The notes under the pieces are model-generated. The model saw only the letters and a list, made by a program, of their open reading frames with translations. It was not told the origin of the DNA and did no database searches. From a virus, in the UHGV virus genome UHGV-0342847: DNA of 60,874 bases; one strand, given 5' to 3'. Both the position numbers and the translations under genes were made by a program. Below, piece after piece: positions 6,161 to 41,431 of this stretch; the first letter of the stretch is position 1; each line of letters starts with the position of its first letter.

Positions 6161-6178
6161 TTAGCGGCATGGATATAA

Positions 6179-8938: not shown

Positions 8939-10208
8939 GACTGGCCTCCGCTATTGCTTTCATGATGCGATCGCCTATCCAGCGCATTACCGGTACTGCC
9001 ATGCTGTTTCCGATGGCTTTGTATCGGTGTCCGTTGGCCACTGGCTTACCCAGATATTCAATCAACGTGTGGCCATCAGGAAAACCCTGCAGGCGCTCGC
9101 ACTCTATTGGTGTCAGACGGCGAACGGAAAGCGGGTAAGTCACGGCCAGATCTGTAGCATCCTTGTAATCACGCGCCTTGCATGTCGATGCGGTTTCATC
9201 GTCTGCATATTCACCAAACGCGGTCATTCTGAATGCTCGCTGTTGGGAATAAGCCACAGCGCCTTCAAAACCACCGCCTTTCTCCCTTGCCTTTAAGGTC
9301 CCGAACAGTTCGTGTGCGGCGTTCTGTTCTTCGTCAAGACCAATACAAACCAAACCGCTGCCACGCTGGCTGAATAGCTCCTGATTGCTCTGGCCTATTC
9401 CTCCGATGTTGTGTGATTGGTTAAGGGTTGGGTGTGCGTTTGCTGGATTATCCCAGTAGCTACCGACTTTAACGCTACTTCCAGTAGTGGCGGAAGTGAC
9501 TTCCCGCGCTTCTCTGCACGGCGCAGTATCCCTTCGCACGCCTTCTGACTCAAAAAGAACTCTTGCGGGATTGAAGTCTCTTCTAGCACTTGCGACAACA
9601 AACACACGGCGGCGTCGTTGGGCCACTCCGAAATATTGGGCATCAAGTACCCGCCACGCGATTGTTCTTTTGCCTCGAAGCACACAACCAGCGTTTGCCC
9701 AGCGATTCCCTGGTGGCTGTAACTCACAGTCTTCGCCGGCAAGCAGTCCAAGGAAGGCTCCGAAAGCGTTATCTTTGCTGCTGAGCACTCCAGGTACGTT
9801 TTCCCAGACGATAATAGTTGGTGGAAGTCCTGCTGCTGCTCGGCGGTAGTCGATGGCATCCGCTAATTCTCCGTATGAAATTGTGAGTTGACCGCGTGGG
9901 TCGGAAAGGCCAGCGCGAGCGCCAGCAACAGAAAATGCCTGGCACGGCGTGCCGCCAACCAGAATGTCGGGGGCTTCCATTTCTCCTGCGCGCATTTTGG
10001 CTGCGAGTTTGGTCATGTCGCCCAGGTTCGGCACTTCCGGCCAGTGATGAGCGAGAACGGCAGACGGGAAGTCCGGGCCATTCTGGTATTTGTGTTCGGG
10101 ATCGAACTGGGAGAACCACGCAGGGCTAAAGCCAAGCACTTCCCACGCTACGCTTGCTGCTTCGATACCGCTGCACACAGAGCCGTAGCTGATAGTGTTT
10201 GTATTCAT
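8931..10208 (-). CDS. DNA (cytosine-5)-methyltransferase
   Basis: Motif I SVCSGIEAAS, motif IV GTPCQAFS, motif VI VWENVPGVL and motif VIII QRRRRVFVV. Confidence 0.85.
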   Translation of the reverse strand: MNTNTISYGSVCSGIEAASVAWEVLGFSPAWFSQFDPEHKYQNGPDFPSAVLAHHWPEVPNLGDMTKLAAKMRAGEMEAPDILVGGTPCQAFSVAGARAGLSDPRGQLTISYGELADAIDYRRAAAGLPPTIIVWENVPGVLSSKDNAFGAFLGLLAGEDCELQPPGNRWANAGCVLRGKRTIAWRVLDAQYFGVAQRRRRVFVVASARRDFNPARVLFESEGVRRDTAPCREAREVTSATTGSSVKVGSYWDNPANAHPTLNQSHNIGGIGQSNQELFSQRGSGLVCIGLDEEQNAAHELFGTLKAREKGGGFEGAVAYSQQRAFRMTAFGEYADDETASTCKARDYKDATDLAVTYPLSVRRLTPIECERLQGFPDGHTLIEYLGKPVANGHRYKAIGNSMAVPVMRWIGDRIMKAIAEASHD

Positions 10209-15045: not shown

Positions 15046-15164
15046 CGTGTTGTTATTTCAGAAACATTATGTGCAAAAATAGGATGTGATTGCAAGAACA
15101 GGAGTTGCATTTTCACAACATCGATCATATCAGGAATCAAAAATCACGGAACAGGAGGTTCCAA
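15046..15164. promoter_or_regulatory. immunity region: divergent promoters/operators between the Cro-like and CI-like genes
   Basis: Repeated TTGCAA/TTGCAT/GTGCAA elements and TGTGA...TCACA. SD AGGAGG before the CI-like gene. Confidence 0.35.
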
Positions 15165-15755
15165 ATGTCTATTAACAAACGATATTTTCATGACCTGATG
15201 AAAGACCGCCGCTTATCACTCCGTGAAGTGGCTCGCAGAATGGAAGTGTGGCCCGCTGCATTATCCCGTTCCCTCGATGGAAAGCGGAAGATGCAGATCC
15301 CCGAAGCCGTTGCGCTGGCGCGCATTCTCACGGTCCCGCTTACAGAGGTAATGCTCAACGCCGGGATCGAACAAGTTAAAACCGTAGGCAGGCGTTGCAG
15401 CATTATAGGCCATGTTCATGAGGGTGCTGTTGTTGAACCAGTTCCAGCTGGTGTGATTGAGCGTGTTTCTATTCCTGATGGGCTGGATGACAACGTGGTG
15501 GCTGTGCAGGTACATACTTCAGAAACGCCAGCTGCTTATTCTGATGGATGGATAATATTTCTCGGGCCAGAGGTAGACCCGGCTGACTGCCTTGGCTGTT
15601 ATTCGCTGGTATACGTCGAAGATGACGGCTGGGTACTCGGTACTATTCGGCGTGGTTACTATCCCGGTACATGGAATGTCTTTCTCCCTATGCGGGACAA
15701 CAGAAAGAACGTGCGGATAATCTGGGCGCGCCGCGCAATTCTCACAATTCATTAA
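15165..15755 (+). CDS. CI-like phage repressor (N-terminal XRE HTH plus C-terminal domain)
   Basis: LSLREVARRMEVWPAALSRSLDGKRKMQIPEAVALARILTVPLTEV. The C-terminal roughly 110 aa could not be confirmed as an S24 peptidase. Confidence 0.6.
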   Translation: MSINKRYFHDLMKDRRLSLREVARRMEVWPAALSRSLDGKRKMQIPEAVALARILTVPLTEVMLNAGIEQVKTVGRRCSIIGHVHEGAVVEPVPAGVIERVSIPDGLDDNVVAVQVHTSETPAAYSDGWIIFLGPEVDPADCLGCYSLVYVEDDGWVLGTIRRGYYPGTWNVFLPMRDNRKNVRIIWARRAILTIH

Positions 15756-16792: not shown

Positions 16793-17653
16793 ATGAATAA
16801 GTCTGAAATGGTACTGGTGCCTCGCTCTTTACTCGACGCAGTGGCTAGCGCGTTAGAAACTGGAAATCCGGTAGCGAAAACGCTGGAATCAGTCAGAGAG
16901 TTTTATCTCGTTGATGGTAGCGAAGAGCAACCAAGCGAGGCAGTAGTAACCCTGCTCGCAATCGCCTCTCAAGTCGGACTGGATCTGTCCGGACTGCTTC
17001 CTGAAGGTGAGCTTTCAACGGTTATCATCAATGCCATTCGTGGTAGTGCTGATGATTTCACAGACGTCAAAACGTTACAGGAATCTGGCAAATTTACTGC
17101 CAGTGCAGACTGGGCATTAGCTGATGACGGAATAGACCTTGAAGCCGCCGACTTCTCTGACGCGCTGATGTGGTTGAAAGAAGGTAAGCGCGTTCGCCGT
17201 TCTGGGTGGAATGCTGGTGGTCAGTGGGCTGAGCGCATCATAAATTCAGGTATTGTTTTCCGTTCAGAGCTAACTGGAGAAACTTACCAAGTTGCTGATA
17301 GCCTGATCCTGAAAAATGCGCAGGGCATCGTTGTGCAGTGGGTTCCTTCCATTGGCGACCTGATGGCTACCGACTGGCAAGTGTATGAAGGACAGTCGGT
17401 ATTCGTTAATAAAACTGCCCAAGTGCCTCTTTCTAGCGAGCTTGTGAAGCTGGAAGCAGATATTCCACCTCACCAGCTGCGCGTGCTGGAAGAGTTGGCC
17501 CAGCTGACTGATCGCCTGGACAAGCTTACGGCATTCTTTGACACAGACGTTTACCGTTCTCTTGATGTTGACGAGCGCGGGCGCCTGAAAGAGCAGTGCG
17601 CGCTGATGGGCGAGCTGCAGCGCGTTCTGGCTGAGAGGGTGGCAGCGTTCTGA
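16793..17653 (+). CDS. DUF2829-domain protein (Tad2-like candidate) with flanking coiled-coil regions
   Basis: FSDALMWLKEGKRVRRSGWNAGGQW...VVQWVPSIGDLMATDWQVYE matches the DUF2829 pattern. Confidence 0.5.
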   Translation: MNKSEMVLVPRSLLDAVASALETGNPVAKTLESVREFYLVDGSEEQPSEAVVTLLAIASQVGLDLSGLLPEGELSTVIINAIRGSADDFTDVKTLQESGKFTASADWALADDGIDLEAADFSDALMWLKEGKRVRRSGWNAGGQWAERIINSGIVFRSELTGETYQVADSLILKNAQGIVVQWVPSIGDLMATDWQVYEGQSVFVNKTAQVPLSSELVKLEADIPPHQLRVLEELAQLTDRLDKLTAFFDTDVYRSLDVDERGRLKEQCALMGELQRVLAERVAAF

Positions 17654-24089: not shown

Positions 24090-24135
24090 CGGCGTAGGTT
24101 GATCCACAATCACCCTTACGCCATTTTTTAGTTCA
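24090..24135 (+). terminator. rho-independent terminator after the HNH gene
   Basis: GGCGTAGG...CCTTACGCC followed by ATTTTTTA. Confidence 0.45.
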
Positions 24136-24300
24136 CGCTGGTTCACGCTGAAACCCTTTGATTACCGGAGAAAAAGCACGCTATTGACTGGTAGCGGCTT
24201 CCGATCAATAAAACAGCTACGGTTGTCAAACCGATACCAACAACAGCACCAGCTAACACCCCAAAACCACCACCAGCCCATGATGGGCTAAGGACTGAAA

Positions 24301-24977: not shown

Positions 24978-26039
24978 ATGCCGAGTTTAACAGACGGACA
25001 AATCAAGAACGCGCTGAAGCGTGTAGCCAAAGCGCAGAAACCTGAAACGCTGGTGGACGGCGAAGGGCGCGGCACCGGTCGTCTTGTTCTGATTATCAAA
25101 CCCCAGCCGACGCGAGTGACGTCGGTCTGGTACGCGCAGCAGTGGAACGATGGCAAGCGCAAGCTGAAGAAGATAGGTGATTACCATCATATCTCGCTTG
25201 CTGATGCCAGAGAGCTGTTTACGCGAGATTTCGCAGGAGCCATCAATAAAGGTTCTTCCATTAAGGTGCAGGGTGATACCCGTCCAGGCACCGTGGGGGA
25301 TTTATTCGAAGCCTATGCCGACTGGCTGCGCGATAGCGGCAAGTCCAGCCACAAAGAGGCCCGTAAAGGCCTGAACAAGATAGCCGACGATCTGGGGCGC
25401 AATAAACTGGCCCGTGACGTTGAGCCTGCCGACGTCGTGAACGTTATCCGTCCCATCTTTGAGCGCGGTAAGCGGTCTATGGCTGACCACGTACGCAGTT
25501 ACATTCGCAGCGCCTACAGCTGGGGGATGAAGAGCGAACACGATTACCGCTCCACCAGCCCGCGTCGCTTCATGCTGGTACATAACCCGGCTGCAGGGAT
25601 CCCCACCGAACCGAAAACTGTCGGCACACGCTGGCTGTCAGAAGATGAATGGTGTGACCTGTATTTCTGGCTGGACGTGCCTGACGTGACAATATTCCCC
25701 GGCTACACCCGCGCTATGCAGTTTCTCATGCTCACCGGCCAGCGCGTAGAAGAGATAGCCCGCCTGCACGTTGACCAGTACGACAAAGCGGAAGGCCTGA
25801 TCGACTGGTCGAAGACGAAGAACGGGAGACAGCACTGCATTCCGCTACCGTCGCTGGCGATTGAGCTGCTGGAGCGTATCACGCCAAATGAGCATGGCTG
25901 GTTTTTCCCGTCAGCGATGGACCCAGAGAAGCCAGTAAGCCACGGTTCACTGTACGCGTTCCTGTGGCGGCAGCGTGACCGCGGCATACTGCCAGACAGC
26001 ACTAACCGCGATCTGCGCCGCATTAAGATTGTTGCATAA
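24978..26039 (+). CDS. int: P4-type tyrosine integrase, apparently lacking the C-terminal catalytic-Tyr segment
   Basis: N-terminal arm-binding region (DUF4102-like). Box I MLTGQRVEEIARL, the K hairpin SKTKNGRQH, and FPSAMDPEKPVS. The ORF stops 5 codons after an RDLRR (HDLRR-like) box, with no downstream Tyr. Confidence 0.75.
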   Translation: MPSLTDGQIKNALKRVAKAQKPETLVDGEGRGTGRLVLIIKPQPTRVTSVWYAQQWNDGKRKLKKIGDYHHISLADARELFTRDFAGAINKGSSIKVQGDTRPGTVGDLFEAYADWLRDSGKSSHKEARKGLNKIADDLGRNKLARDVEPADVVNVIRPIFERGKRSMADHVRSYIRSAYSWGMKSEHDYRSTSPRRFMLVHNPAAGIPTEPKTVGTRWLSEDEWCDLYFWLDVPDVTIFPGYTRAMQFLMLTGQRVEEIARLHVDQYDKAEGLIDWSKTKNGRQHCIPLPSLAIELLERITPNEHGWFFPSAMDPEKPVSHGSLYAFLWRQRDRGILPDSTNRDLRRIKIVA

Positions 26040-26042
26040 GGA

Positions 26043-26068
26043 AAGCCCCGTTCTGGGGCTTTATTTTT
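26043..26068 (+). terminator. rho-independent terminator directly after int
   Basis: AAGCCCC-gttct-GGGGCTT then TTTATTTTT. Confidence 0.6.
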
Positions 26069-26339
26069 AAATCAGGCTGCGAAGTTCGCTCTCTATTTCT
26101 CTCAGTTCCTGAATTATAAGGTCGGTATCCTGAATGCCCCTTTCAAGGGCATGAATAATTCCAGATGGCGAACCATCTTTTTTCTCTTTCAGCGTTTCAG
26201 GGTGTTCGCCGCGCAGCCGAGCCAGCGTCTGCAACAGACAAATTTTTACATCGTTCAGATCAGTATTCTGGCGTTTCTGCATGCTAACTACAGATTCAAG
26301 TCTGCTTTGTACTGCACACTCATCATTGTCAATATTCAT
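26067..26339 (-). CDS. hypothetical 90-aa protein adjacent to int/att region
   Basis: SD GAGGG 8 nt upstream. Helical, no motif recognised. Confidence 0.4.
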   Translation of the reverse strand: MNIDNDECAVQSRLESVVSMQKRQNTDLNDVKICLLQTLARLRGEHPETLKEKKDGSPSGIIHALERGIQDTDLIIQELREIESELRSLI

Positions 26340-27249
26340 AGCAATACCCTCAATTAAGTTTGATTCTTAATTTTCAGGGTTTCAAGGAAGGAAGTACAAC
26401 GAGGAATTTTTACCGAAACGATAAAAAGCGTCCCTGGCGGTCAGAACAATTATCTTCTTCCTCCGATTAGTTAGAAGACCCCGCCAGGGCGAAAATTTCA
26501 CATCCACGAATGTTATGGCTGTTACCTCATAACGCAGGTATCCCTCCAGTTGGATTTAACGCCAAGACCTCATTGAGGAAACGGAGTTCTGAAAGAATAC
26601 CTGCGTTATGAGTTGTGTTCGTGGGGTCTACTTCCCTCCTGTCACGGTTCTTTCCCCGCGTCATCATGTGTTCATTCGGTACATGAAACCCATTTGTCGG
26701 GATTCCACCGACGCCCATCTGTTTTTAAAGCCACTCAGATATCGTCCGGGCTTGTTGTGGTGTCCGGTGCTGAACCCCGGATTAATGGCGATAGGCGCGT
26801 GGAGTCGCCTCGTTTTACGTCTTGTCCGATATACCATCCTCCGCGACACCGCATAAAACTCTGCGGATTAGCATCACCCGGCTCACGGTCTTGCCAGCTC
26901 GTTTAGGGACTTTTCCAAAGTACCTGACAAGTTCTCGCTCATCTGATTAGCGCATCAGCCTGCGCATTCACCACAACGGAAAGAGCACTGGCTAACCAGG
27001 CGCGCCGACTCTTCACGATTATCGGCTCAATGCTCTTACCTGTTGCATCCTCGTCTCTTCCGAGGTGTCACACCGTACCGCCACGATGGTGAGTCGCTGT
27101 CGTGCATGTTGGAGCATGGCTTGCACATTCCGGTTGCCCTGGTCGGGTATGGATAAAGGACCGACCAGCCCGCTAACGCTGCATGTGCCATACAACGTAC
27201 TGCACATACACTATAGCAAAACAGAATATTAATTTGCAAACATGCAATA
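26340..27249. other. ORF-poor, stem-rich 0.9-kb region (candidate attP and/or structured ncRNA)
   Basis: No convincing ORF in six frames. Perfect 16-bp inverted repeat 26526-26541 / 26597-26612, and a 9-bp IR 26432-26440 / 26481-26489, among many further stems. Confidence 0.35.
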
Positions 27250-27288
27250 AAAGAAAAGCCCCAGACGTGTGAACTGGGGCTTTTGTCG
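27250..27288 (-). terminator. strong rho-independent terminator closing the late/lysis operon
   Basis: GCCCCAG-acgtgtgaa-CTGGGGC. The minus strand is followed by TTTTCTTTT. Confidence 0.6.
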
Positions 27289-27326
27289 TACTGATGGAAG
27301 CAATGTCGCGAAGCAAGTTAAATATA

Positions 27327-27896
27327 TCAGGGCTTACACTGTTTCGCCACGTCGTTTATGTAATTTTGCAGATACTGGATTACTTCGTCGTCGCGCTGGG
27401 TTGACTCTCTGAGATCGAGAACAGTTTGTTGACCAGCTGCGGAGAGTTCGATTTGTACTGCATCGCCCATGCTGCTGCTGCCGGTATCTCTGCTTGTGGC
27501 GCGCTGACCAGCTGCAAGTTTGGCTGTGGCGAGGTTTGCGGAGAGGATACGCACCCGCTTGTCACCAGCGGCAACAGCATCGCGCAGAGCATCATTTTCA
27601 CGTTTGGCATTGGCTAACTTCTCCTGAGAGGTTTTATCGGCGTTTGCGGCTGCTTCCTGTGCGGCATGCGTACGCTGTAGAGCGGAAGCGGTGTCTTGCT
27701 GCGCTTTTATGGTGATTGCAGTCTTCTCGCGGCCCCACTCCTCACGATCATTTGAGTGCTGTTGCTTCAGGTCTGCAATATCGGCTTTGTAGCTGGTGGA
27801 TGTTGCCCACCATGCGATTCCGGCACCGGACCCGGCGATAATCGCAACAGCCAGGGCAGCACCAACTGCTTTTACCTTCCAGGAGAGGGGGTTCAT
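27327..27896 (-). CDS. i-spanin (Rz-like)
   Basis: N-terminal TM segment (AVGAALAVAIIAGSGAGIAWW) and a long coiled-coil periplasmic domain. Last gene of the lysis cassette. Confidence 0.65.
   Translation of the reverse strand: MNPLSWKVKAVGAALAVAIIAGSGAGIAWWATSTSYKADIADLKQQHSNDREEWGREKTAITIKAQQDTASALQRTHAAQEAAANADKTSQEKLANAKRENDALRDAVAAGDKRVRILSANLATAKLAAGQRATSRDTGSSSMGDAVQIELSAAGQQTVLDLRESTQRDDEVIQYLQNYINDVAKQCKP
27380..27610 (-). CDS. o-spanin (Rz1-like) embedded in the +1 frame of Rz
   Basis: Lipobox LVTSGC and a Pro-rich mature region, fully inside the Rz gene. Confidence 0.55.
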   Translation of the reverse strand: MPNVKMMLCAMLLPLVTSGCVSSPQTSPQPNLQLVSAPQAEIPAAAAWAMQYKSNSPQLVNKLFSISESQPSATTK

Positions 27897-29287: not shown

Positions 29288-32200
29288 CTAGTCGTAAATT
29301 CTGGGTGCTTGTTCCTCCAGAATTCGTTCGCGCAGCTTCCGATTGTAGCGCATTCCACCCGTCGCGCTCTCAGCATTTTGCGCACGCGTTTTCATGGAAC
29401 TCTTGATGCTCTTGCCTGTGATGGCCTGCTCTGGGTATTTCTCGTTGAACTTAGTGATTTCATCAACGATCTTATCTTTCGCAGTGTCATCGCCTTTCTT
29501 ATCGGCTTTCCAGTACCCATCCATGAGTTTAGAACGCTGGCGCAATATCGTTTGCTGCAGGTTGTAGCCAGCATTGTTGATATCGTACTGCTCTGCCAGT
29601 TTCGCCGGGGTGGAGCCAAGAGCCTGCCGGATAACGTCGCCGTAGCCAACATCATCAACGATCGTGTCGCCTTTCAGGTTCGTTGCACCTTCTGTGGCGT
29701 AACGGTAAGCCTTCATCGGATCCTTAACCGCTTTCGGCATCATCGTTTCAATGCCGCGGTAGGTTTCTCCCTGTTTCATGAGGTTGAAGCCACGGAAGAT
29801 ATTGCTGGCGATCGACGGCGTAGCCCCCAGCAGCTGAGACTGCCAGTATTCAAACTCGCTTTTCCCTTCCAGCTCTGTAGATGGGGAACGGAACCAGAGA
29901 TCGCGCATCCCCAAGGATTCAGACTGGCTGGTGCCGGTCACGTAACCCGGCACGCCATCGAGGATAATACCGGTCATCATCGGGCCAAGCGCTTCGACCA
30001 TGTTCTTTTTCAGCTCCTGCTCTGGGTCTTTGTCATCATCCATGAACATAGAGGCCAGGGCAAACACGATACCAGCTCCCCACGTTCCAGCCAGGCCAGC
30101 GCCAAGCATCATCATTCCTGTGATACCGGCCAACTGGATCCGCGCCTCTCTCTTCGCTGCCGGGCTATCTCCTTTCACCGACTGGTGAATATCGCGGAAC
30201 AGACGATACAGCATGTTGATCGAGTAGTTACGGAAGACCAGTGCCACCTTCATCATATCGTTGTGCATGACACGAGGACGGCTGTTGTTCTGGTAGTCGA
30301 AATGGGTTTTCCACGTCAGATCGTTAGCTGCTTCAATCGCTTTCTGGTGGCTAAGGCCTTTGGCGCGCGCCATACGGTACGCCATCAGCACAGTGACCTC
30401 GCGGTTGATGCGCTCTGTATGGTGGAATGCCCACGACGCAGCAGCCATCAGGCGAGTTTTCAGCGGGCTGTAGTCAATGCCAGTTTCGCCAATGCTCGCC
30501 AGGTCATGCGCCTGCGTACGGTCAATGATGCCGATATCATAAGCAGCCTGAATCGCCTTCTTCTCGTCGGCGGTCAGGTTTTTGCTTTCACCGATAGAGC
30601 CTTTACCACGCACCAAATCGGAAGATGCGCGGGCAAACTGATTAATTGCCCGGGTAAACCCTTTCGCCGTTCCGTCGTACGCAGCCATCACCGGAATACC
30701 AATCATCGGCGTCTGGGCAAGGTTTCTAATTGCCGTGATAGGTGACGCAGCCATGAACCAGAGGAATGCCGCGCTGGTGAGCTTAGTCGCAATCGATCCA
30801 CCTGTCGGGTTCATGATGTACTGGTGTCGTTTCTCCATTTCGTTGACAACCAGACCGTCGCGAACAGGATCCTTCGTCTTGCCAGCCTCTTCGCGGGCAG
30901 CGTCCAGAGCCTCTTCCATATCGAAGGTGTACTTCAGGCGCGCCAGTTGGTGTGCGCTATGGAACATCTGATTACCAAATGCCCGCAGCGCGTCAGCGTT
31001 GTACCCCTTGCGGCCAGTACGGTGGATACGGTTTTTACGGATGGAGAAATCCGGCAGGCTTTCCAGATAGCGCTGCCACACCTCATCCTTCACGGTTTCG
31101 GCGTTTGGCAGGTCAGCCAGAATGTCTTCGACGTCGGCCACAAAGTTAGCGTCTACTGCTTTGCGGGTCGTCATACTGTCGTCCAGCGCGCCAACCTGCA
31201 CCGTATATTTCGGGTTTTCGCGCATCAGCTGAGCAAATTCACGCTGTTCACGGGCAGATTCAAAGCGGCTGAATGACTCGACCTTTCCGGATTCCTTATC
31301 GCGCACGGTGACAAACAGGTTTCCGAAGCGAGCCAGCGGGAAGTATGGCCCCTGCAAGCGGTTCATTTCGAACTGCGTACGCAGTTGGGTGATACGTGCC
31401 TTACGGTTCCATGCTGTCTTCGTCTTGGCGATTTTCAGCTTTTTATCTGCTTCGGCCTGGGCATCTGCTTTCTCCTGCCCGGTCAGACCTTCATCAACGA
31501 TACGCTGCAGATCGGCGCGGTGCTCACGCTCAGCGCGTTTGATGCGCACGTTAATGGCCTTCTCCATGTTGCCCAGTAGGGTTTTCTCGTACTCGTTGGT
31601 GATTTCCGTATAGGCGTCACGAACTTCCTTGAAGATTTCCTGGCCTTCTCCGGACAGCTTCTTATAACGGGCGTTCAGATCACCCCATGCTGAATACCGG
31701 AGATCATCCTGTGCCGCTTTCGCCACCAGCTCCAGTTCTTGCTCGCTGCCAGCGGCAACGGTACGCAGAGCATCACGATCCCGGTCAGTCATCATCGGTT
31801 CAAACGATTCAGACGGGTCTACCTGGGAAATGGTGGCGTCGTGCATCAGATCCATCAGCTCGACGTTTTCAACCGGATGCAGTACGCGGTACTTCAGCCA
31901 TTTCTGCGCCGTTCCGTCAGTCTTCGAATGCCATTTGTTACGCATGGCGTCCATTGACTGCTTCAGAGACATGTATTTAACCAATGACAGGATGTTTTTT
32001 CCCAACTCCGTTACCAGCGGGCGAAGCGGCAACAGCCCCAGACCATGCTTCATTGAGTCAGTAATCTTGTCAGCAGGCAGGTTTTTGAGGCGATCCCACC
32101 AGGTGCGTACCTTCGCGTTGTCCTGCGCTTCGGTTGGGATGTTAGGGTCCGGCTCCATGCCAGAGCGCAGGGATTGCAGGTCTGGAGACTGATAGTCACC

Positions 32201-35200
32201 AAACTGATTAACCAGACCATACATATCATCGCCGGTGCGGTTGATAATCTGGTTGTTCACAAACTTGCCGTCACCGGCCAGAACGGAATCCAGAGCCTCC
32301 ATTACCGCGCTCGGGTCGTCGCCTTTGGCACCCAGGATAGAGCGGATTTTCGCGATGATCTGCTTCATCACTTCAACAGCGCGATCCACCCATGTTTTCG
32401 GTGCATCACCGCGGGCCTTACGCTCTGCGATGATACGCGCGCCGTTCTCCGCCCAGTATTCAGACGGGGAAGCGTACTGGTAATCGCCTGGCGGCAACTC
32501 TCCAGTAGCAAATGCCTGTCGAGCACGCTCCAACCCCTCTTTATCGCCGTACATACCAGCAACCAGATCCGCTAACAGGTGCTCGCGACGGGTATCCCCG
32601 GCGTCTGCATATTCCTGCATGCGAGCTTCAAGTGCCTGCGTCCACTCTTTTGCAATGGCTTCCTGCACGTTCCGCGGCAGCATGCGCTCCATGTGGTGCA
32701 TGATTTCGTGCGTTGCGGTATTGGCATCGGTCGTTCTTACCGGCGCACCATTACGGGCAAAATCGCTGAAGAGAGTAATCAAACGGTTAGGAACGTTGTA
32801 GTTACCGGCTGGCAGTGAATCCCCTCCGCGGGCCAGCTCGATGTTCAGTGAGTTAGCGATGTGCGGATACTGACGAACCAGCCACTGAGCCAACTGCGCC
32901 CCTTCTTTGCTGTATACCCCGCTAATTTCAGCAGCACGCAGGGTAGCAAGAACTTTCTCCTGGTTTGTGGTAGCTGTGCGGTTCTGGAATTCGATACGGG
33001 ATACCAATTCAGCAAATTTATCAGCCGGGATAGCTTGGCTTTCTTGCCCGCGCATACGGGTAAGAGCTGCAATATCGTCAGCAGATGCCTGGCGCTGGTC
33101 GTTCGTGAATGCCGGAAGTTGTTCTCCCTGCGGCTCACGGTACATCGTTTCGCTGATCTCGTAGTCCTTGTTGCGCCCTTTGTTGTCCACAAAGCCAAAG
33201 CGCTTATAGAACTCATTGAGACGCGACTTGTTACCGCCAAAGTCACTGGACGGTGACAGCGCTACAGTTTTTCCGTTGGCATCGGCCCAGTTGGTAATCT
33301 GCTGCATGATAGCCGTACCGGTTCCAAGATTTCTGGAATCAGATGGCAGTTCGATGCGTTGCAGTGTCACAACATTACCGGTTCCCGTGAGGCTGAGTTT
33401 CAACCCGGGATACTGTGCTTTCAGCTGGTCTGCAAACTCTCGTGTGGTTTGCTCACGACGGAAAGACGGCAGGTCGCTCATCTGCTGCTGGCGACCTTCA
33501 CGATCGCTAACAGACAGGTCTTCAATCTGGTCAAACAGATCGTTGATGCTGTTGGCATTGCTCAGGTCTTCCTGCTGGGTCTGCGGTGCCTGATAGTCCT
33601 CGCTGGTGTTCTTCTCCAGTACTAGGACGCGGGTATTAACCTGTGTACCGGCGCGTTCAAACGTGGATCGCGGCATCCAGATATCTGCTACCAGATGAAT
33701 ACCGTTCTCTTCGTTGTCGCGCATAAACTGGTTAAAACGCTGGTCAGCCAGACCACCGCGCGGCACCAGCGCCACGATGCGACCGCCTTCACGAAGGTGC
33801 TGCACTGCTTTCGATACGTGATCGTAGGCAGTTTTCCCACCCATGCCGTAAGGCGGGTTCATAACGATAGCGTCGTACTTGTTGGTGCGGTTCAGGTCTT
33901 CAAAGCGACTGTTAACGATACGTGCCACGCCATTCACCAGCGCAGCGCGCTGTGACAGGTTCAGGGAAGGTTCAACCATCGTCACGTCAGTCTGTGCAGG
34001 GAAGAAGCGAGCGATCGCGCCGTGACCAGCTGACGGCTCCAGCACTTTGTCGCCTGGCTTAATGCCAGCCCATTCTACCATCTTCATGCCCACCGGTTCC
34101 GGCGTGGCGTAATAGTCCACCCCTTCGCGGTTATCCCTGCTCTTACTGTTCTTCTGCTGGGCGTAGTAGTAGGACTTCGCCTTGTCGAACTCAGAGATCG
34201 TATTGCTGTCCCGCTGGTCTGCTGCCTTGCCGCCTTTCCCGTCAGACTTACTCGCAGTAATAGGTGCTGCATCCTGATAGGAATTGATGAAAGACTGCTT
34301 CAGAGCACGGGAATCCGGCCCCATGGCGAGGTTTTCAGCGGTAGATGCACGCTCTGCAAGTTTCGATGCGAACGCGCTGGCTTCCCACGCTGTGCCGGTT
34401 GTCATGTATCGGAAAATAGCGTCAGAAGCCTGGCCGGTGCGATAGATGCGCCCCTCAAGCTGGATCGCCTTCGTCGGCTGCGTCGGCAGGCCAAGGTTAA
34501 TCTCTACGCGCTGGTGCTTGCCGCTGGTGTCGTGAACGCTGACACCCTCACGCATAGCGTCAGACTGGGCAATCAGGATGTTCGGCCCTGTCAGATCGTC
34601 GTTGAACTTATCCGCATTCGCTCGGCGCTTAGACTTCGGCACCGTACCGTTAAAGGTCATCGCATTCGGGAACGCCGCCAGCAGGGTATTCAGTGCAGAG
34701 TCAAGCCCGCTGAAGTTAATGCGGAACAGTGGCCTTTGGAACAATTCACGGGCAACCTGGCGCAAAGCCGGATCCATATCCTTCAGAGATTCAGCAAACG
34801 GATTGAAGCCGCCGCCCTGGTTGTAGTCGTGAACTACCAGAACCTTACGGCCTAACGCGAGGTGTTGCTTAATGATCGGGATAGCGGCTCGGGCCTTCAT
34901 CGACTCCAGAAGGAACATTTTGCGCTGGTGGTCGAAGGTATCCATTACCGCACTGTAGATATTGCGGTACATGCCATTCTCGCCGCTGTTCAGGTACTCC
35001 AGAGCCTGATCAAGCTTCTTGCCCGCGGCATCGTCAATCAGGACGAATTTGCGGTCGTAGTCGAATGGAACATCGAGGGAACGGCCAATCAGAGCACCGG
35101 TATCTTTCAAATACTGGTTGAAGTTCTGCTCCATCAGCTCGGTGTTAACCTCAGCATCAGGGCGAGTCAGCCGGTTGTACCGCATGCGGTAGCCGAAATT

Positions 35201-38200
35201 CTGAATATAGAACATATCTCGCGGGTTGCCGCTGTTGTACCCGCCGCCGCTGCGGTCTTTGAAACGATCCGCTGGTGGCGTGTGGTGGAACAGGTAGCCT
35301 TCTGCGTAATCGGTATTCATGACGTACGCGAAAGGAGTGGCAGACATGAAGACGGTTTTCGGCAGGTTCTCCTGCTTCTCCCAGCGCGCATTCCATTTCG
35401 CACGCTCGCTTTTATACAGATCATTCCACTGCGCCAGCAGACGGTCATAACGCGCTGAACGCTTCTCGGCGGCATCGGTTTTGTTGTTTTCTGTAGCATC
35501 CTTGTCGCGGGCATGCTGTGCGGCCACCAGCTCAGCATACTGATCGCCATACTTCGCCTGCAGCCATGAAGAAAAGCCATCCGGATGACCAGTTAGCGCC
35601 CGGAACATGCGCAACTGCTCGGTAACGTCGCCGCTTTCGTTCTGCATCAGGCGGTGAGACTCATCAGGGATAACCAGGTCCCACTCACGCTGGGCCAGGA
35701 AATTATTCTGCCCAAGGTTTGCGTAGGTGGTGATCACAGGACCGCTGCCGCCATTGTCAGTGATACCGCTCAGCTGCTTCAGTGGCATATCCAGCCAGCC
35801 AGCTGATTTAACCCAGTCAGAGGCGATCTTGTCGGACGGGACAAGAATCAGGATGTTTTCGCGACCTGCGTTATGGAAGCGCTTAGCCACGCCAAGGCCT
35901 GACATGGTTTTACCCGTTCCGGTACCGTTGGTAATGACGATCCCGTTGTCTTTTTGGTGGCGCTGTTCCACTTTGACAACATCATCCTGCTGCGCAGACA
36001 GTAGCATAGGCAGAGAGGCGCGTACGCTATCAGCATCACCCCACTTAGTTTCTTTCGGCGCTTTCTTCTGCGCTGCTAAACGTTGAGCGAACTCCCCGGC
36101 TCCAGCGGCGTGAGCATTTGCAGTAACTGCTGCTGCTCGGCTTCGCTCAGTTGATAGTCCTGCTTCGCTACGCCCAGCGCTTCCGGTGCGGATATCACTT
36201 CCGGACACGCCTTGCGAAGGTCGGAATTGCCCGTCTTCTCGATGTACGCGCTGATCGCCTGGTTCTCCGCGAGTAGCGGCCCCATCGTCTGATACGCGTT
36301 GATCACGCTGTCCGGTGTCCCGTTCTTCGTTAACGCGTCGGCCTGCTGTTGCAGGGCGCTGTCCATCTGTTCCTGATCCATTGCCATCAGCGCTTTCATT
36401 GACGGGTTTTGCATTTCCGGCTGCTGCGCTATCTGGTTCCAGACCTGTGCGGGGAGTTGATACATTAGGCACCTCGTTATCGAACTGTGACACCATATCA
36501 TCCATTGCGCCGATTGCCCGGGATGGTTGACGGGTGCTTGATTTTTGCGCTTCATCCTGCTGTGCGGCTGGCGCGTTTGGTTGATCGTTGCTTGCTGCTG
36601 GCTGCTCATTCAGTTTCGCCAGCTCGCTGCGCACGGTTTCCGCGGTATCCATCCCCTCGATACTGACACCGCTATCCTCCATCATATCGCGGGCACCGTT
36701 ATACCAGCTGCGCAGGTACGGACGAACACGGTTAAGCGGCAGGTCGAGATCGTTCGCCATCGCTTTCGCGAAATCGGCAAATTTACGGACACCGGCCTCA
36801 ATGTGGAACACGGCCAACTCGGTACCGATCGCCAGAATCTCCGGGTCAATACCGCTATTCAGCTGGGAGAATTTAGCCTTCAGGCGCTGGCGCAGCTCTG
36901 CCGCACGATCCTGAGATACCAGTTTGTTGTTGGCTCCGTACTCCGCTGATTTGGCTGCTTCCTGCGGCTGCTCAGTCACCTGGCTGGCATCGTAACCCTT
37001 TTTCCACGCATCAAACTCGGCCTTACCCTCTTGGGTGGATCTAGATGGAATACCCAGCGTTGCACGCACGCTAGTAATGAAACCTGTGCGTTCTTCCTTG
37101 CCGACAAATTTCAAACGGTCAGATAGCTCGCTTTCAACCTGCGCTACCGTCTTACCGTCAGCAAACAGCCTTTCAATGTCCAAAGTCAAACCCGCTTTAT
37201 CCGCACGATCACGATCTTGCTGTGCGTTCTGGTTTACCCAGCTCTGCTCATCTTTCCCAACGGTGACGCGAGGCGTCTCTCTGGTTTCAGGAATATTTTC
37301 AGGAATATTTTGTTGTTCGTTTTGTCGTGCTGATGCTGAGCGATTTTTTGCAGTCGGGCCTTCAGGATCGCCAAACAACAAGCTATTAACGGTATCCTGG
37401 TCTGATTGAGACATTCGGTTAGGGTCAATGGCTTTCAGTAGGGTAGCATTCCAGTCATTCCCAGTTTCCTGAGCCTCTTTTACTGCTTCCTCATACATCC
37501 AGTTGTTCAGACGCTTCGTGCTGTTGCTTAGTTTCTGAGGGCCAGTAGTGTCAATCTTAGGTGCGGGTGATAATTTACGCCCACTCATACTGTAAAGCTG
37601 TTCACCGGACTCGACCACTCCATCACGCGGCGGCTTACGTTCGTTTCGTTGTTCTTGCTGAGGAGATGTTTTGGTTTCCGCAACAGTCTCTGCAGTAGAT
37701 TGAGCAACTGGCTCAGTCTTATTCCACGTCACATTACGGGAACGGCCAGATTCCATTTCGGCAACAGAAAGCGTGGTGCTGCTTCCGGTTTCCTGGTTGG
37801 TGAGGTGGATCGTTCCGTTTTTATCGATGCCGTTGATCTTGTACTTGCCACCAGCCTTCGCATAGCCGACATCACCAGACGGTGACACGATATTTCCCTC
37901 TGCACCGACAACCTTACGGGCGCGGTTAACGCGTGGGCTTTCCTTCTTCCCTTTCGGCAGTTTAGGTGCTTCTGCTTTGGCACCCTCATTCGTGAGGGTA
38001 CCAGACGTTTCCGCCAGCGCTGGTTGTTCAACCTTGTGGATCTCGAAACGATTAGGCTTCACCTGTACCGCGTCGTAACCATCCAGCTTGCGGCGATCGA
38101 TAAAGGCCTTTGCCTTCTCCTGGGTAGAGAACCATTTCGGCTTGCCGTCACCGCCGATCAGTGCAGGGCTGGCGTCGGCGGTTGCAGTGTCACCAGAAAC

Positions 38201-41200
38201 AGTAGCTCGTCCACCGGCAGCAGGCTGGTCGGCAACACCCGCGTCATTTCGTTCACCGGATCCAGCAACTCGGCTTTCATCTGGTTGTACTGCAGTTGTG
38301 ATATCAGGATCTGCCTGCGCAGGAGTTTCAGCGCCTGCAGGCTGCTCATTTCTCTGTTCCTGTTGAATTGCCGCATTCTGTGAACCTCTCTGTTTAAGGC
38401 CAGCAATAGCGTTTTTATCAATAACAGCGTATTCGGTGCGCCCACGCGGGTCAGTGCCCACGACAACGCCGTAACCTTTCGATAGCAGATCGTTGATAGT
38501 GTTCTCTGACAGGCGGGTGATATCACCTTCCTTACGGAAAACCTTTGTTCCAGGCTTGATATTGACGTCGTAAACCGTTGGCGTTCCGCCCATCATCCCG
38601 GCGTAACCTTCAGCCTGTGCCGCGTCCTCCGCCCGGGTGCCGTAGAAACCACCATAAACGCGACCTTTCTTGCCTTGCTTCTGGCCTTCAGGACGGATGA
38701 TCTGGATATCATCGGCAGTGAGGTTAGGGTTTCCGGATCCATGAACGATGGTCATGCCTTCGTTGCCTACGGTTTCCCCGTCACTTTCACTATTCCCTCG
38801 GTTCAGGAACTCTGCTGATTTGTCGTTGAGCCTTTTTGACTCTGCCGTCTCTTCGGCTGTGCGGTTGCTCTTGTTCAGCAATTCTTTCAGGCGCAGGGAT
38901 TCCGTTTTGGTCAGGCCAAAATCATCGACTGCGTTACCGCTTTCCCGGTCTTTTACTTTGGCGTTAAGCGCTTTTTCCACCTGGCGGCGTGCATCCATCA
39001 GACGCTTATCCATCCCGCCGTTCTGTTTTGCCTGCTGCGCAATATAACGCATCCGGCCGCGCAGCTCGTCTTCACTCAGATCGGTAAGTGGGCGCTCCTG
39101 CGGCACGTCGATTTCGCGCACAGCTGGCTTGCCATCGATGATTTCACCAGTAGCAGGGTCAACGGTCATGCCGTCATCGGTAGCCTGCTGCTGGATTTCC
39201 GGCTGCGCTGCAGGCTGTTCTTCCTGCACTGGTGCGGCGGCTTGCTCAGTCTGAGGCAGGTTAATGTCGATATCATCAGGAGTGACGGTGTACGGCGTGC
39301 CGGTTCCGTCGCGAACGGTAACACTGCCGTCATTCTCGTAACGGTCAATGGTGACGTCCATCGCGGTAGACGGGTCGCCTTTTGCCTGAATGTTGATGGC
39401 GTTTCCAGGTTCTCCCGCCCAGAGATTGCCGTTTGCCGCTGTTGGTTGATCAGCCGTTCCACGCACTGCTCGCTCAAGCGGTCCAGCATCATCCGACAGG
39501 CCACTATCGTCACGCGGAGGTGTTGGTGCAGCATCCGTGGCCGCATCCTGCATCTGTGCTTCCGGATCTGTAGGCGCAACTTGTACAGGAGTGGTTTCTG
39601 CTGGCGTAGCATCCTGTTGCTGGCTAACGCGAGGGGCAGCAAGCCCCATTCCTGCCCCCATCATCCCACCAAGAGCAGCGCCGCCAGCTACCTGGTTAGC
39701 TACGCCCTTCATCAGAGGCGTGCTCGGGTCAGCTTCCTGCATGGCATAGTTCTGCCCCATCTGCTGGAATGCGCTTTGCGGGGCTTCTTCAAACAGGCCT
39801 TCACCTATAGCGCCGGTAAGGGCAGACTTCAGGCGACCACCAGCATTCCCAGTGATGATTTTCGCCATAGCGCGATCGCCCATGCCGCCGAAAATACCGG
39901 TACCGACACCGGCCAGCAGGAAAGCTTTCGACGCGGCGTTTTCTGCCAACTCTGAACGGGCTTGTTCAAACGTCTTGCCGCCGTCCATAAGAGATTTAAG
40001 CGCCTGGCTGTCTTTCAACTGGTCAGGCGTCATCTGGTTGATCTGCTCACGCGTTTCGCGGGCAGACTGCGCACCACCTAAACCACCTTCCAGAATGCCA
40101 CCAGCAACGGTAGCAGTACGGGCAGCAGCCTTTGCTGCCACCTCACGTGAAGCACCACTCGCAATAGCTCTTTTATAGGCCATAGACGCAAGGCGACCAG
40201 ATCCGCCCATCGTTACCGCCATTTCTGGCAGTGATTCAAGGATTCCGGACATATACGCACGAGGATCCGACCACGCCGGGCCGAAACTGTAGCCAGTGGC
40301 TTTCTTGCCGCCGCCGATATCATCACCAGGCTCGACCACCCACGCCTTTTTGCGGGCAGCGGCAAGCTCAGGCGAGTAGGATTTCTCAGTGGATTTGTCC
40401 CACTCTTTGAAAATTTCCTCAGAGCTTTTCCCATTTGCCCAGCGGTCAAAGCGATCGGCAGCATTGACGATTGGCTTACCGATCAGCGGTACACGGCTTA
40501 CCAGCTCCTTTGTATCCTTTGCGGCAATGTTCACACCGGATTGTAGGAGGTTCATCACGTCAGCGCCCATTTCCAGCGCGTCGTCCATGATCCCCTGTTG
40601 TTTGGCGGTCTGCGCCTGCTGCTTCTGCTCTTCCTGTGCCATATGCTCAGGAATGGATACGGGCTGAGTAATAGCCTTCACATCCTGCTGTAACTGGTTA
40701 GCCTTGCCGATTACGTCACTTTCCTGCTGCTGTACCTGTGCCATTTCAGAGGCGGTCAGCGGTCGGTAACGACCAGGCTCTTCGGCGTTAAGTTGATCGA
40801 GAACGTTTTGTGTTTCGATAGCACGAGCACGGAGATCGTTCTGCTCCATGTTCTCCATAGCACTCTGCGCTGCCGGGTATTCAGCTGCAAAATCACGCTG
40901 CGTCTGTGCTGGCTGCTTGATCTGCCCCTGCGTACCATCAAAGAAGGTCTGCGCCTTGTTAAGGACGTCAACACCGTACTGGCGGGTTTTTGGCCCCCAC
41001 TGTTTGCGGTCATCACCGCCGAAATGCGCGGATATCGCTTCCTGAATGGAATAGCCTTTATCGAGGCGCTGCTTCAGCTGCTTAGCTGCGGCGTCAATCG
41101 CCTGGCGTGGATCGTACGGGTTAATGCCCATCCCGGCAGCGGTAGAGTCGAGATACTGCATCAGGCCTTTGGCTCTGCCCCATTTGGTACGTTGCCCCAG

Positions 41201-41431
41201 CGCGGTAGGGTTGAAACTGGATTCCTGTTGCGCGAGCGCCATCAGTACGTTCACCGGAACACCGTATTTCTGCGATGCACTGGCAAAGTCTGACTGGAAC
41301 GGCACGTTGCCTGGTTCAAATGTGACCTGTTGGCGTCCTTCCTGTGACTTCTGGAATGACTCTGGCAAACCGAAAGACGGCGCTTTTGCCAGCGCCGCTT
41401 CAATTGGTGACGGAAGAGTATCTCGTGCCAC
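29288..41431 (-). CDS. giant (4047 aa) multi-domain virion/ejection 'polyvalent' protein: SLT lytic transglycosylase + SF2 helicase + N6-adenine methyltransferase + GNAT + HExxH peptidase-like + C-terminal membrane segments
   Basis: SLT AQQESSFNP...GLMQYLDSTAAGMGINPY (about 40950-41315). Helicase GTGTGKT / DESH / SAT / QLEGRIYRTGQ (about 34400-35930). MTase VLEPSAGHGAI + NPPYG (about 33700-34130). GNAT RNLGTGTAIM...FYKRFGF (about 33150-33420). HEIMHH (about 32683-32725). Hydrophobic C-terminal segments (about 29700-30750). Confidence 0.85.
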   Translation of the reverse strand: MARDTLPSPIEAALAKAPSFGLPESFQKSQEGRQQVTFEPGNVPFQSDFASASQKYGVPVNVLMALAQQESSFNPTALGQRTKWGRAKGLMQYLDSTAAGMGINPYDPRQAIDAAAKQLKQRLDKGYSIQEAISAHFGGDDRKQWGPKTRQYGVDVLNKAQTFFDGTQGQIKQPAQTQRDFAAEYPAAQSAMENMEQNDLRARAIETQNVLDQLNAEEPGRYRPLTASEMAQVQQQESDVIGKANQLQQDVKAITQPVSIPEHMAQEEQKQQAQTAKQQGIMDDALEMGADVMNLLQSGVNIAAKDTKELVSRVPLIGKPIVNAADRFDRWANGKSSEEIFKEWDKSTEKSYSPELAAARKKAWVVEPGDDIGGGKKATGYSFGPAWSDPRAYMSGILESLPEMAVTMGGSGRLASMAYKRAIASGASREVAAKAAARTATVAGGILEGGLGGAQSARETREQINQMTPDQLKDSQALKSLMDGGKTFEQARSELAENAASKAFLLAGVGTGIFGGMGDRAMAKIITGNAGGRLKSALTGAIGEGLFEEAPQSAFQQMGQNYAMQEADPSTPLMKGVANQVAGGAALGGMMGAGMGLAAPRVSQQQDATPAETTPVQVAPTDPEAQMQDAATDAAPTPPRDDSGLSDDAGPLERAVRGTADQPTAANGNLWAGEPGNAINIQAKGDPSTAMDVTIDRYENDGSVTVRDGTGTPYTVTPDDIDINLPQTEQAAAPVQEEQPAAQPEIQQQATDDGMTVDPATGEIIDGKPAVREIDVPQERPLTDLSEDELRGRMRYIAQQAKQNGGMDKRLMDARRQVEKALNAKVKDRESGNAVDDFGLTKTESLRLKELLNKSNRTAEETAESKRLNDKSAEFLNRGNSESDGETVGNEGMTIVHGSGNPNLTADDIQIIRPEGQKQGKKGRVYGGFYGTRAEDAAQAEGYAGMMGGTPTVYDVNIKPGTKVFRKEGDITRLSENTINDLLSKGYGVVVGTDPRGRTEYAVIDKNAIAGLKQRGSQNAAIQQEQRNEQPAGAETPAQADPDITTAVQPDESRVAGSGERNDAGVADQPAAGGRATVSGDTATADASPALIGGDGKPKWFSTQEKAKAFIDRRKLDGYDAVQVKPNRFEIHKVEQPALAETSGTLTNEGAKAEAPKLPKGKKESPRVNRARKVVGAEGNIVSPSGDVGYAKAGGKYKINGIDKNGTIHLTNQETGSSTTLSVAEMESGRSRNVTWNKTEPVAQSTAETVAETKTSPQQEQRNERKPPRDGVVESGEQLYSMSGRKLSPAPKIDTTGPQKLSNSTKRLNNWMYEEAVKEAQETGNDWNATLLKAIDPNRMSQSDQDTVNSLLFGDPEGPTAKNRSASARQNEQQNIPENIPETRETPRVTVGKDEQSWVNQNAQQDRDRADKAGLTLDIERLFADGKTVAQVESELSDRLKFVGKEERTGFITSVRATLGIPSRSTQEGKAEFDAWKKGYDASQVTEQPQEAAKSAEYGANNKLVSQDRAAELRQRLKAKFSQLNSGIDPEILAIGTELAVFHIEAGVRKFADFAKAMANDLDLPLNRVRPYLRSWYNGARDMMEDSGVSIEGMDTAETVRSELAKLNEQPAASNDQPNAPAAQQDEAQKSSTRQPSRAIGAMDDMVSQFDNEVPNVSTPRTGLEPDSAAAGNAKPVNESADGNGSGTDGQRPATAGRRVNEERDTGQRDQRVSDDGAATRGEPGDQRVHREDGQFRPSQGVSGSDIRTGSAGRSEAGLSTERSRAAAVTANAHAAGAGEFAQRLAAQKKAPKETKWGDADSVRASLPMLLSAQQDDVVKVEQRHQKDNGIVITNGTGTGKTMSGLGVAKRFHNAGRENILILVPSDKIASDWVKSAGWLDMPLKQLSGITDNGGSGPVITTYANLGQNNFLAQREWDLVIPDESHRLMQNESGDVTEQLRMFRALTGHPDGFSSWLQAKYGDQYAELVAAQHARDKDATENNKTDAAEKRSARYDRLLAQWNDLYKSERAKWNARWEKQENLPKTVFMSATPFAYVMNTDYAEGYLFHHTPPADRFKDRSGGGYNSGNPRDMFYIQNFGYRMRYNRLTRPDAEVNTELMEQNFNQYLKDTGALIGRSLDVPFDYDRKFVLIDDAAGKKLDQALEYLNSGENGMYRNIYSAVMDTFDHQRKMFLLESMKARAAIPIIKQHLALGRKVLVVHDYNQGGGFNPFAESLKDMDPALRQVARELFQRPLFRINFSGLDSALNTLLAAFPNAMTFNGTVPKSKRRANADKFNDDLTGPNILIAQSDAMREGVSVHDTSGKHQRVEINLGLPTQPTKAIQLEGRIYRTGQASDAIFRYMTTGTAWEASAFASKLAERASTAENLAMGPDSRALKQSFINSYQDAAPITASKSDGKGGKAADQRDSNTISEFDKAKSYYYAQQKNSKSRDNREGVDYYATPEPVGMKMVEWAGIKPGDKVLEPSAGHGAIARFFPAQTDVTMVEPSLNLSQRAALVNGVARIVNSRFEDLNRTNKYDAIVMNPPYGMGGKTAYDHVSKAVQHLREGGRIVALVPRGGLADQRFNQFMRDNEENGIHLVADIWMPRSTFERAGTQVNTRVLVLEKNTSEDYQAPQTQQEDLSNANSINDLFDQIEDLSVSDREGRQQQMSDLPSFRREQTTREFADQLKAQYPGLKLSLTGTGNVVTLQRIELPSDSRNLGTGTAIMQQITNWADANGKTVALSPSSDFGGNKSRLNEFYKRFGFVDNKGRNKDYEISETMYREPQGEQLPAFTNDQRQASADDIAALTRMRGQESQAIPADKFAELVSRIEFQNRTATTNQEKVLATLRAAEISGVYSKEGAQLAQWLVRQYPHIANSLNIELARGGDSLPAGNYNVPNRLITLFSDFARNGAPVRTTDANTATHEIMHHMERMLPRNVQEAIAKEWTQALEARMQEYADAGDTRREHLLADLVAGMYGDKEGLERARQAFATGELPPGDYQYASPSEYWAENGARIIAERKARGDAPKTWVDRAVEVMKQIIAKIRSILGAKGDDPSAVMEALDSVLAGDGKFVNNQIINRTGDDMYGLVNQFGDYQSPDLQSLRSGMEPDPNIPTEAQDNAKVRTWWDRLKNLPADKITDSMKHGLGLLPLRPLVTELGKNILSLVKYMSLKQSMDAMRNKWHSKTDGTAQKWLKYRVLHPVENVELMDLMHDATISQVDPSESFEPMMTDRDRDALRTVAAGSEQELELVAKAAQDDLRYSAWGDLNARYKKLSGEGQEIFKEVRDAYTEITNEYEKTLLGNMEKAINVRIKRAEREHRADLQRIVDEGLTGQEKADAQAEADKKLKIAKTKTAWNRKARITQLRTQFEMNRLQGPYFPLARFGNLFVTVRDKESGKVESFSRFESAREQREFAQLMRENPKYTVQVGALDDSMTTRKAVDANFVADVEDILADLPNAETVKDEVWQRYLESLPDFSIRKNRIHRTGRKGYNADALRAFGNQMFHSAHQLARLKYTFDMEEALDAAREEAGKTKDPVRDGLVVNEMEKRHQYIMNPTGGSIATKLTSAAFLWFMAASPITAIRNLAQTPMIGIPVMAAYDGTAKGFTRAINQFARASSDLVRGKGSIGESKNLTADEKKAIQAAYDIGIIDRTQAHDLASIGETGIDYSPLKTRLMAAASWAFHHTERINREVTVLMAYRMARAKGLSHQKAIEAANDLTWKTHFDYQNNSRPRVMHNDMMKVALVFRNYSINMLYRLFRDIHQSVKGDSPAAKREARIQLAGITGMMMLGAGLAGTWGAGIVFALASMFMDDDKDPEQELKKNMVEALGPMMTGIILDGVPGYVTGTSQSESLGMRDLWFRSPSTELEGKSEFEYWQSQLLGATPSIASNIFRGFNLMKQGETYRGIETMMPKAVKDPMKAYRYATEGATNLKGDTIVDDVGYGDVIRQALGSTPAKLAEQYDINNAGYNLQQTILRQRSKLMDGYWKADKKGDDTAKDKIVDEITKFNEKYPEQAITGKSIKSSMKTRAQNAESATGGMRYNRKLRERILEEQAPRIYD

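Follow-up and report, generated by a model that had tools for sequence, protein, structure and literature searches.

A recent loss-of-function deletion between two 7-bp repeats has, very likely, inactivated the integrase gene (int) of a temperate-type phage of ~61 kb. The gene lies in UHGV virus genome UHGV-0342847, a DNA stretch of 60,874 nucleotides to which we refer as the window. An earlier note, made from the letters alone, had described an integrase ORF that ends before the catalytic-Tyr segment, with a P4-family N-terminal arm domain, the box I Arg and the Lys hairpin, and the ORF, its domains and its RDLRR-IKIVA-stop ending are all as described there. The features of the gene are as follows:

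24978..26039, plus strand: inactivated integrase gene with internal in-frame deletion, 353 aa against 416 aa in the parental protein (ORF list, Pfam, alignments)
24987..25220 (aa 4-81), plus strand: arm-type DNA-binding domain, intact (PF13356, Arm-DNA-bind_3, E = 2.3e-6)
25347..25541 (aa 124-188), plus strand: central/core-binding domain, intact (PF22022, Phage_int_M, E = 1.6e-6)
25713..26021 (aa 246-348), plus strand: catalytic-domain remnant, with R256, K279/K281 and R344-D-L-R347 kept (PF00589 match, family alignment)
26016..26022, plus strand: deletion junction, with the lone surviving copy of CGCCGCA (alignment with contig L003)
26022..26039, plus strand: native C-terminal tail IKIVA and native stop, homologous to the ...RRKRRIKIVA-stop ending of P0001, the closest relative of the protein

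Domains and residues retained by the integrase

Both the arm-binding and the core-binding domains of heterobivalent integrases of the lambda/P4 type are present (PF13356 and PF22022), together with the first two thirds of the catalytic domain. The PF00589 (Phage_integrase) match at residues 246-338 (E = 9.3e-9; 35.7 bits, for a cut-off of 27.1) covers only profile positions 27-124 of 172 in the 353-aa protein; in the full-length SopranoGao integrase it extends to position 161. Within the remnant, Arg I is R256 in LTGQRVEEI (codon 25743-25745), invariant across the family alignment, and the KTKNGRQH hairpin holds K279, nearly invariant, and K281, invariant in KTKNG, both of them identified by motif position alone. 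RDLRR occupies residues 344-348 (window 26007-26021) and includes Arg II, after which the protein closes as ...TNRDLRR-IKIVA, with the stop five residues past the motif. Subfamily-wide, apparently functional members included, the first His of box II is an invariant Arg in the alignment (N-R-D-L-R-R-T).

The arrangement of arm-binding, core-binding and catalytic domains and the box I/box II logic are those of lambda Int (1z1g/1z1b/5j0n), from which the window integrase differs in sequence (16-19% identity), in the Arg that its subfamily has for the first box II His, and in the attB of its family, which appears to be protein-coding radC. The PF13356 domain is likewise that of P4-type integrases (Arm-DNA-bind_3/DUF4102 N-terminus), although the probable target of the window integrase is radC and not a tRNA gene.

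Loss of the catalytic His and Tyr

His II and the nucleophilic Tyr are both missing from the window integrase. In a family alignment of 16 sequences, numbered after P0001, H370 and Y380 are nearly invariant and both fall within the deleted block, in a segment that reads LQNH...SSKSYDRY and carries the second His and the nucleophilic Tyr. Beyond the common TNRDLRR, the integrases of SopranoGao and ZX1 (421 aa) run on as TFKTLAGKAGLTQEIRDRLQNHARFDVSSRHYDRYSY..., and the family pattern R-D-L-R-R-T...L-Q-N-H...S-S-K-x-Y-D-R is the classical box II pattern of tyrosine recombinases. P0001 (93% amino acid identity over the retained part) and the integrases of SopranoGao (ASV45100.1) and ZX1 (QTH79861.1), which are 76-77% identical, share the three-domain architecture and the gene neighbourhood of the window integrase but carry the TW/FKTLAGKAG...LQNH...SSKxYDRY stretch that it lacks. 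The earlier note had allowed for a catalytic Tyr placed upstream in this subfamily; the family alignment puts it in the deleted block.

The AlphaFold model of P0001, with pLDDT mostly between 70 and 95 in the catalytic domain, has its best PDB fold match in full-length lambda integrase (1z1g, E = 1e-9). In this model most of helix 343-357 falls within the deletion, together with helix 361-368, the low-confidence loop on which H370 and Y380 lie, and the greater part of the C-terminal helix. Since PDB sequence searches with P0001 and with the 16-sequence profile returned no match at E <= 0.01, the assignment of the catalytic residues relies on the family alignment, on the box II pattern and on the fold match to lambda Int, and not on residue-level superposition. 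Lacking His II and Tyr, the protein is a tyrosine recombinase by descent and not a functional member, and its annotation should read inactivated (internally deleted) integrase.

Extent and junction of the deletion

Pairwise DNA alignment of window positions 25880-27340 with L003, one of the contigs that encode P0001, contains one 189-nt gap within int and is collinear on both sides of it. The loss amounts to 63 codons, in frame, equivalent to residues 349-411 of the parental 416-aa protein. The deletion is bounded by 7-bp direct repeats, CGCCGCA, whose two copies in L003 lie 189 bp apart at int nt 1038, in codons R347-R348 of RDLRR, and at nt 1227, in codons of ...RRKRR, each copy encoding an Arg-Arg pair. 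Across the junction the window has ...GATCTGCGCCGC joined to ATTAAGATTGTTGCATAA, the latter lying directly 3' of its CGCCGCA copy and corresponding to ATCAAAATCGTCGCATAA in L003, where the same region reads CGCCGCACG...(189 nt)...CGCCGCATCAAAATCGTCGCATAA. From the relatives (86% nucleotide identity for L003) we infer that both copies of the repeat were ancestrally present. A spontaneous and recent deletion between them, by replication slippage or short-homology illegitimate recombination, would account for the lesion, because a 189-bp loss between 7-bp repeats is the signature of such events.

Judged by its homology to P0001, the IKIVA-stop ending is the gene's own 3' end, with no read-through into foreign DNA. 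The deletion being in frame, the reading frame continues through the five native codons at the end to the native stop, and the gene keeps its own terminator. The intrinsic terminator that had been claimed after the stop was found at 26042-26062, as a terminator-like hairpin, AAAGCCCCGTTCTGGGGCTTT, followed by a T-run. The missing segment had been said to occur in none of the downstream frames, and we agree: a six-frame tblastn of the missing C-terminus (81 aa of the SopranoGao Int) against the whole window gave a best match of 18 aa at E = 0.12, which is at chance level, and blastn over the whole window gave chance matches only. The figure of roughly 35 missing residues was correct as to their absence, whereas in count and place it gives way to 63 residues lost from inside the gene by comparison with P0001. 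In the same manner, the suggestion of a deletion or insertion at the 3' end of int holds for a deletion (189 bp, between 7-bp repeats) and fails for an insertion and for the proposed link to the 0.9-kb region that follows. The lesion is an in-frame deletion and involves no frameshift of the kind that, as the note had considered, a reading error might have introduced.

Integrity of int in relatives and age of the lesion

At E <= 1e-20, 1278 homologues were retrieved from 5.8 billion protein clusters, and the best 120 of them are all 410-432 aa long. The closest among the matches listed, P0001 (416 aa, 93% identical to the window integrase), is encoded on the ~61-kb Logan contigs L003-L005, in an int neighbourhood like that of the window. 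A look at related genomes for the missing C-terminal codons, as the earlier note had proposed, finds them in P0001/L003, collinear around the 189-nt gap. A complete int of 413-421 aa is present in 11 of 13 close IMG/VR relatives, and in another, L023, the contig end removes part of the gene but spares its C-terminus. L022 (IMGVR_UViG_2602041892_000001, ~4080-4100) has a +1 G insertion in int after ...EIR (AGGGGACCGG vs CGCGACCGG), which puts the gene out of frame immediately ahead of the His II/Tyr segment and is either a real independent inactivation or a homopolymer sequencing error.

The 348 retained codons of the window gene contain no stops and no frameshifts. When the codon differences between the window and L003 are polarised against six outgroups, 34 synonymous and 11 non-synonymous changes fall on the window branch of int. 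This purifying pattern indicates a gene that remained constrained along most of the branch, and hence a recent deletion.

By gene order and by patchy megablast matches at ~77%, the window appears to be a ~61-kb phage related to Lastavirus (Klebsiella phages SopranoGao, vB_KpnP_ZX1 and LASTA). The int region shows ~77% nucleotide identity to SopranoGao and ZX1, and the order of genes is as in ZX1: int, a small convergent ORF, a non-coding stretch, Rz, holin-like genes, an endolysin and a giant ORF. ZX1, whose int is full length and which also has a repressor and an anti-repressor, has been described as temperate (PMC9505181). In LASTA and SJM3, int is reduced to 258 bp by the authors' count and was called non-functional, and lysogeny was found neither by PFGE nor by sequencing of a resistant clone; both phages were shown to be virulent, and a temperate past was proposed for them (PMC10052179). 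They resemble the window in having the same int orthologue at the same genomic position, followed by the small convergent ORF, the non-coding cassette and Rz, and in combining a deletion-inactivated int with an otherwise temperate-looking phage. The lesions differ, however. LASTA keeps only the first 258 bp (the remnant is annotated as 273 bp) and has lost all of int downstream of it, whereas the window keeps 348 of 416 codons and the native tail around a 189-bp in-frame microhomology deletion; the two are independent events. Together, the LASTA/SJM3 remnants and the window lesion make integrase decay recurrent in the Lastavirus-like group, with the window as an independent further case.

The probable attachment site

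Two features upstream of int bear on the site of integration:

24102..24115, plus strand: probable attP core ATCCACAATCACCC, the same as the radC IHNHP-coding sequence at prophage junctions
24131..24150, plus strand: tandem repeat GTTCACGCTG x2, candidate Int-binding sites, conserved in relatives and at prophage junctions

The probable core precedes the int start codon by ~0.9 kb. In the integrated copies L009, L029, L030 and L031, radC lies immediately upstream of int, the gene order in the alphaproteobacterial loci L029-L031 being map-radC-int. By blastn, the homology of L008 and L009 to the window starts at ~24099 and extends rightwards only. In the alignment, what lies to the left of the core ATCCACAATCACCC is host radC for L009 and L008, while the window and L003 have phage sequence there. 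The window DNA is thus in the excised attP form, with phage sequence contiguous across the core as in phage-form relatives.

The apparent target of this integrase family is radC, at its IHNHP-coding sequence (L009 ~9091, L008 ~9810, and L029-L031). L009 is a Lastavirus-like prophage in PhaC-SfsA-map-RadC synteny. Integrases ~70% identical to that of the window are found directly after map-radC in Asticcacaulis and Rhizobium chromosomes, and integrase conservation is unusually high between alpha- and gammaproteobacterial elements. Downstream of int (~5700-9242), L029-L031 have genes for an RNase T-like protein, a UvrD-family helicase and an OLD-like TOPRIM/AAA ATPase, a set that resembles a Gabija-type defence island more than a phage. 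The tRNA-Arg gene of ZX1 was also considered as a mark of attP and was ruled out by the prophage junctions, which are at radC upstream of int.

The region downstream of int

Between int and Rz the window contains the following features, given with the lengths of the corresponding stretch in relatives:

26042..26068: terminator-like hairpin AAAGCCCCGTTCTGGGGCTTT with T-run, common to int (plus strand) and the convergent small ORF (minus strand); conserved in L003
26067..26339, minus strand: small convergent ORF, 90 aa, phrog_6238, with counterparts by position in L003 (92 aa), ZX1, LASTA, L008 and L009
26415..27239, minus strand: probable non-coding transcription unit, with promoter-like site, structured RNA of ~790 nt, terminal hairpin and U-run
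Stretch from small ORF to Rz, window: ~990 bp
Same stretch, ZX1: ~880 bp
Same stretch, L003: ~510 bp
Same stretch, L008 and L009: ~150 bp

The earlier note had tied the truncation to the unusual 0.9-kb region. That region is separated from int by the terminator and the ORF at 26067-26339, both conserved in L003; from the int stop through the terminator to the small ORF the window is collinear with relatives, and relatives with an intact int carry a similar cassette. A truncating insertion of the 0.9-kb region is accordingly ruled out by the collinearity with L003 and by the presence of the same cassette beside intact int genes.

Positions 26415-27239 probably constitute a structured non-coding RNA unit of ~790 nt on the minus strand, to judge from its signals and predicted folding. 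A promoter-like TTGCAA-N18-TATAGT lies at 27239-27210 (minus strand), and a long hairpin with a U-run at ~26470-26420 ends the minus-strand unit. Compared with shuffled sequences (20 shuffles only), the folding of the 791-nt minus-strand RNA has z = -7.4, against z = -2.3 for the plus strand. The 3' module (26412-26625) is conserved in six Lastavirus-type loci, with 50 predicted pairs and 97% of cells paired; in these six loci nine pairs show compensatory changes, compared with 1.7 in column shuffles, and the conserved G-U pairs are such on the minus strand only. The same module comes directly after a tRNA-Arg(UCU) gene in LASTA and, by coordinates, in ZX1. As neither a search of window positions 25800-27500 against Rfam 15 at E <= 1 nor ARAGORN over the window returned any RNA family or tRNA, the 0.9-kb region fits no known RNA family.

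Two further modules, at 26695-27045 and at 27027-27209, reappear at identities of 75-99%, without annotation in every case, in ~240 other records of temperate phages and in the prophages of several hundred E. coli chromosomes. Their place in IME10 and in the P22-like prophages of E. coli is between the Q antiterminator and the holin; elsewhere it is between terminase and portal, beside tRNA-Arg or a pseudo-tRNA (pseudo-tRNA-Gly); the loci used for these placements were L006, L007, L025, L026, L032 and L033. Our best reading of the region is that of a mosaic tRNA/ncRNA 'moron' cassette from which the tRNA would have been lost in the window, its modules perhaps representing a mobile tRNA/leader cassette.

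Consequences for lifestyle and alternative explanations

A tyrosine recombinase without its Tyr nucleophile cannot cleave DNA. Loss of this residue thus implies no DNA cleavage and, unaided, neither integration at the radC attB nor stable lysogens; on these chemical grounds the phage very probably cannot integrate any more. The deleted int would yield at most a DNA-binding, catalytically dead protein, and of the options listed in the earlier note that of a crippled integrase is the one that agrees with the 189-bp in-frame loss of His II and Tyr. A related resident prophage could provide Int in trans. The following regulatory genes are found in the early half of the window:

15090..15755, plus strand: CI-like repressor, intact (44% identity to the annotated ZX1 repressor; HTH domain)
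15024-14875: cro-like ORF, divergent from the CI-like repressor

With repressor and attP intact, infection would lead at most to abortive or unstable lysogens, and in practice the phage would be virulent like LASTA/SJM3.

Other explanations for the short gene can be weighed against this one. It is unlikely that the short allele is an artefact of assembly or sequencing, or that it represents a minority in a population that really has the full-length 416-aa gene. The exact 353-aa sequence has no record in a contig index of 153 billion gene positions and the close relatives are full length, which makes the deletion a singleton observation; yet a 7-bp repeat is far too short for assembly collapse, the junction is clean and in frame with good homology on both flanks, and independent int lesions occur in the same phage group (LASTA/SJM3, L022). 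Retention of the truncated Int for a non-catalytic role, either as a regulator binding arm- and core-site DNA or as a dominant-negative protein that poisons the integrases of related phages, is improbable. This would agree with an in-frame deletion that leaves both DNA-binding domains and the expression signals intact, with the candidate binding repeats still there at attP, and with the purifying pattern in the retained codons (34 synonymous to 11 non-synonymous). That pattern, however, is equally expected from mere recency of the deletion, one in three deletions is in frame by chance, and about a third of the catalytic domain is lost, probably destabilising the fold; moreover, an allele shared by no second genome gives no sign of selection for the truncated Int. 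We give still less credence to the specific proposal that the Tyr-less Int is a retained DNA-binding protein which hinders integration or excision of related radC-targeting phages, or which controls attP-proximal genes.

Integration-dependent remodelling of a gene is exemplified by intP of Mx8 and by the repressors of cluster G mycobacteriophages, and the earlier note had raised an attP overlap, in which the 3' end of int would contain attP and a functional C-terminus would depend on the other DNA configuration. All that speaks for such an arrangement is the early end of the ORF and the non-coding DNA after it, and it is extremely improbable here: int is full length in phage-form L003 and circular ZX1 and equally in the integrated copies L009 and L029-L031, from which it follows that recombination does not remodel its 3' end; the host junctions lie upstream of int at the radC-derived core, in the window at 24102-24115; and the IKIVA-stop ending is the native one of P0001, the missing codons being found nowhere in the window. 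A plasmid-like lifestyle, or a grounded prophage past needing an integrase, is also very improbable, even though a dead int beside an intact CI-like repressor might suggest it. The window carries an uninterrupted attP whose core is flanked by phage DNA to the left and to the right, and this excised configuration means that it is not a trapped prophage; and among 20 early-half ORFs scanned (those of ~140 aa or more) there was no ParA/ParB, plasmid replication protein, protelomerase or second recombinase, which speaks against a plasmid. The 20 ORFs include methylases, HNH nucleases, a small terminase subunit, a sigma-like regulator and a Tad2-like protein.

Inactivation of int by a recent deletion between short repeats, which remains our preferred reading, is of a kind already published, even for this phage group; the specific lesion is new and unusually cleanly defined. 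It adds a second case of integrase decay in Lastavirus-like phages, one that is defined mechanistically, with a possible frameshift in a third relative, and it supports the view that virulent Lastavirus-like members are recent derivatives of temperate phages, without calling for any new mechanism. The intact repressor and attP place the phage one small deletion away from its temperate ancestor. A match to the annotation 'integrase' would wrongly flag it as capable of lysogeny, and this bears on lifestyle calls of the kind made for phage therapy.

Other observations on the window

A tailspike segment at ~50985-52400 (ORF 51010-53511, minus strand) has 94% nucleotide identity to the tail spike of Salmonella phage pertopsoe. 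A match at the same level is found in other 158-kb Salmonella phages, whereas for the remainder of the structural region no known phage gives a close match. The 94% tailspike match suggests that the host is a Salmonella and that the receptor-binding domain has been exchanged horizontally. The ORF at 16793-17653 (plus strand) combines a Tad2-like (anti-Thoeris) domain with a crAss001_48-like domain. A giant ORF of 4047 aa at 29288-41431 (minus strand) adjoins the lysis genes, in the same position as in ZX1, L003, L008 and L009; the giant ORFs of L003, L008 and L009 contain SLT, helicase and LPD39 domains, and that of ZX1 is annotated as a PLxRFG protein.
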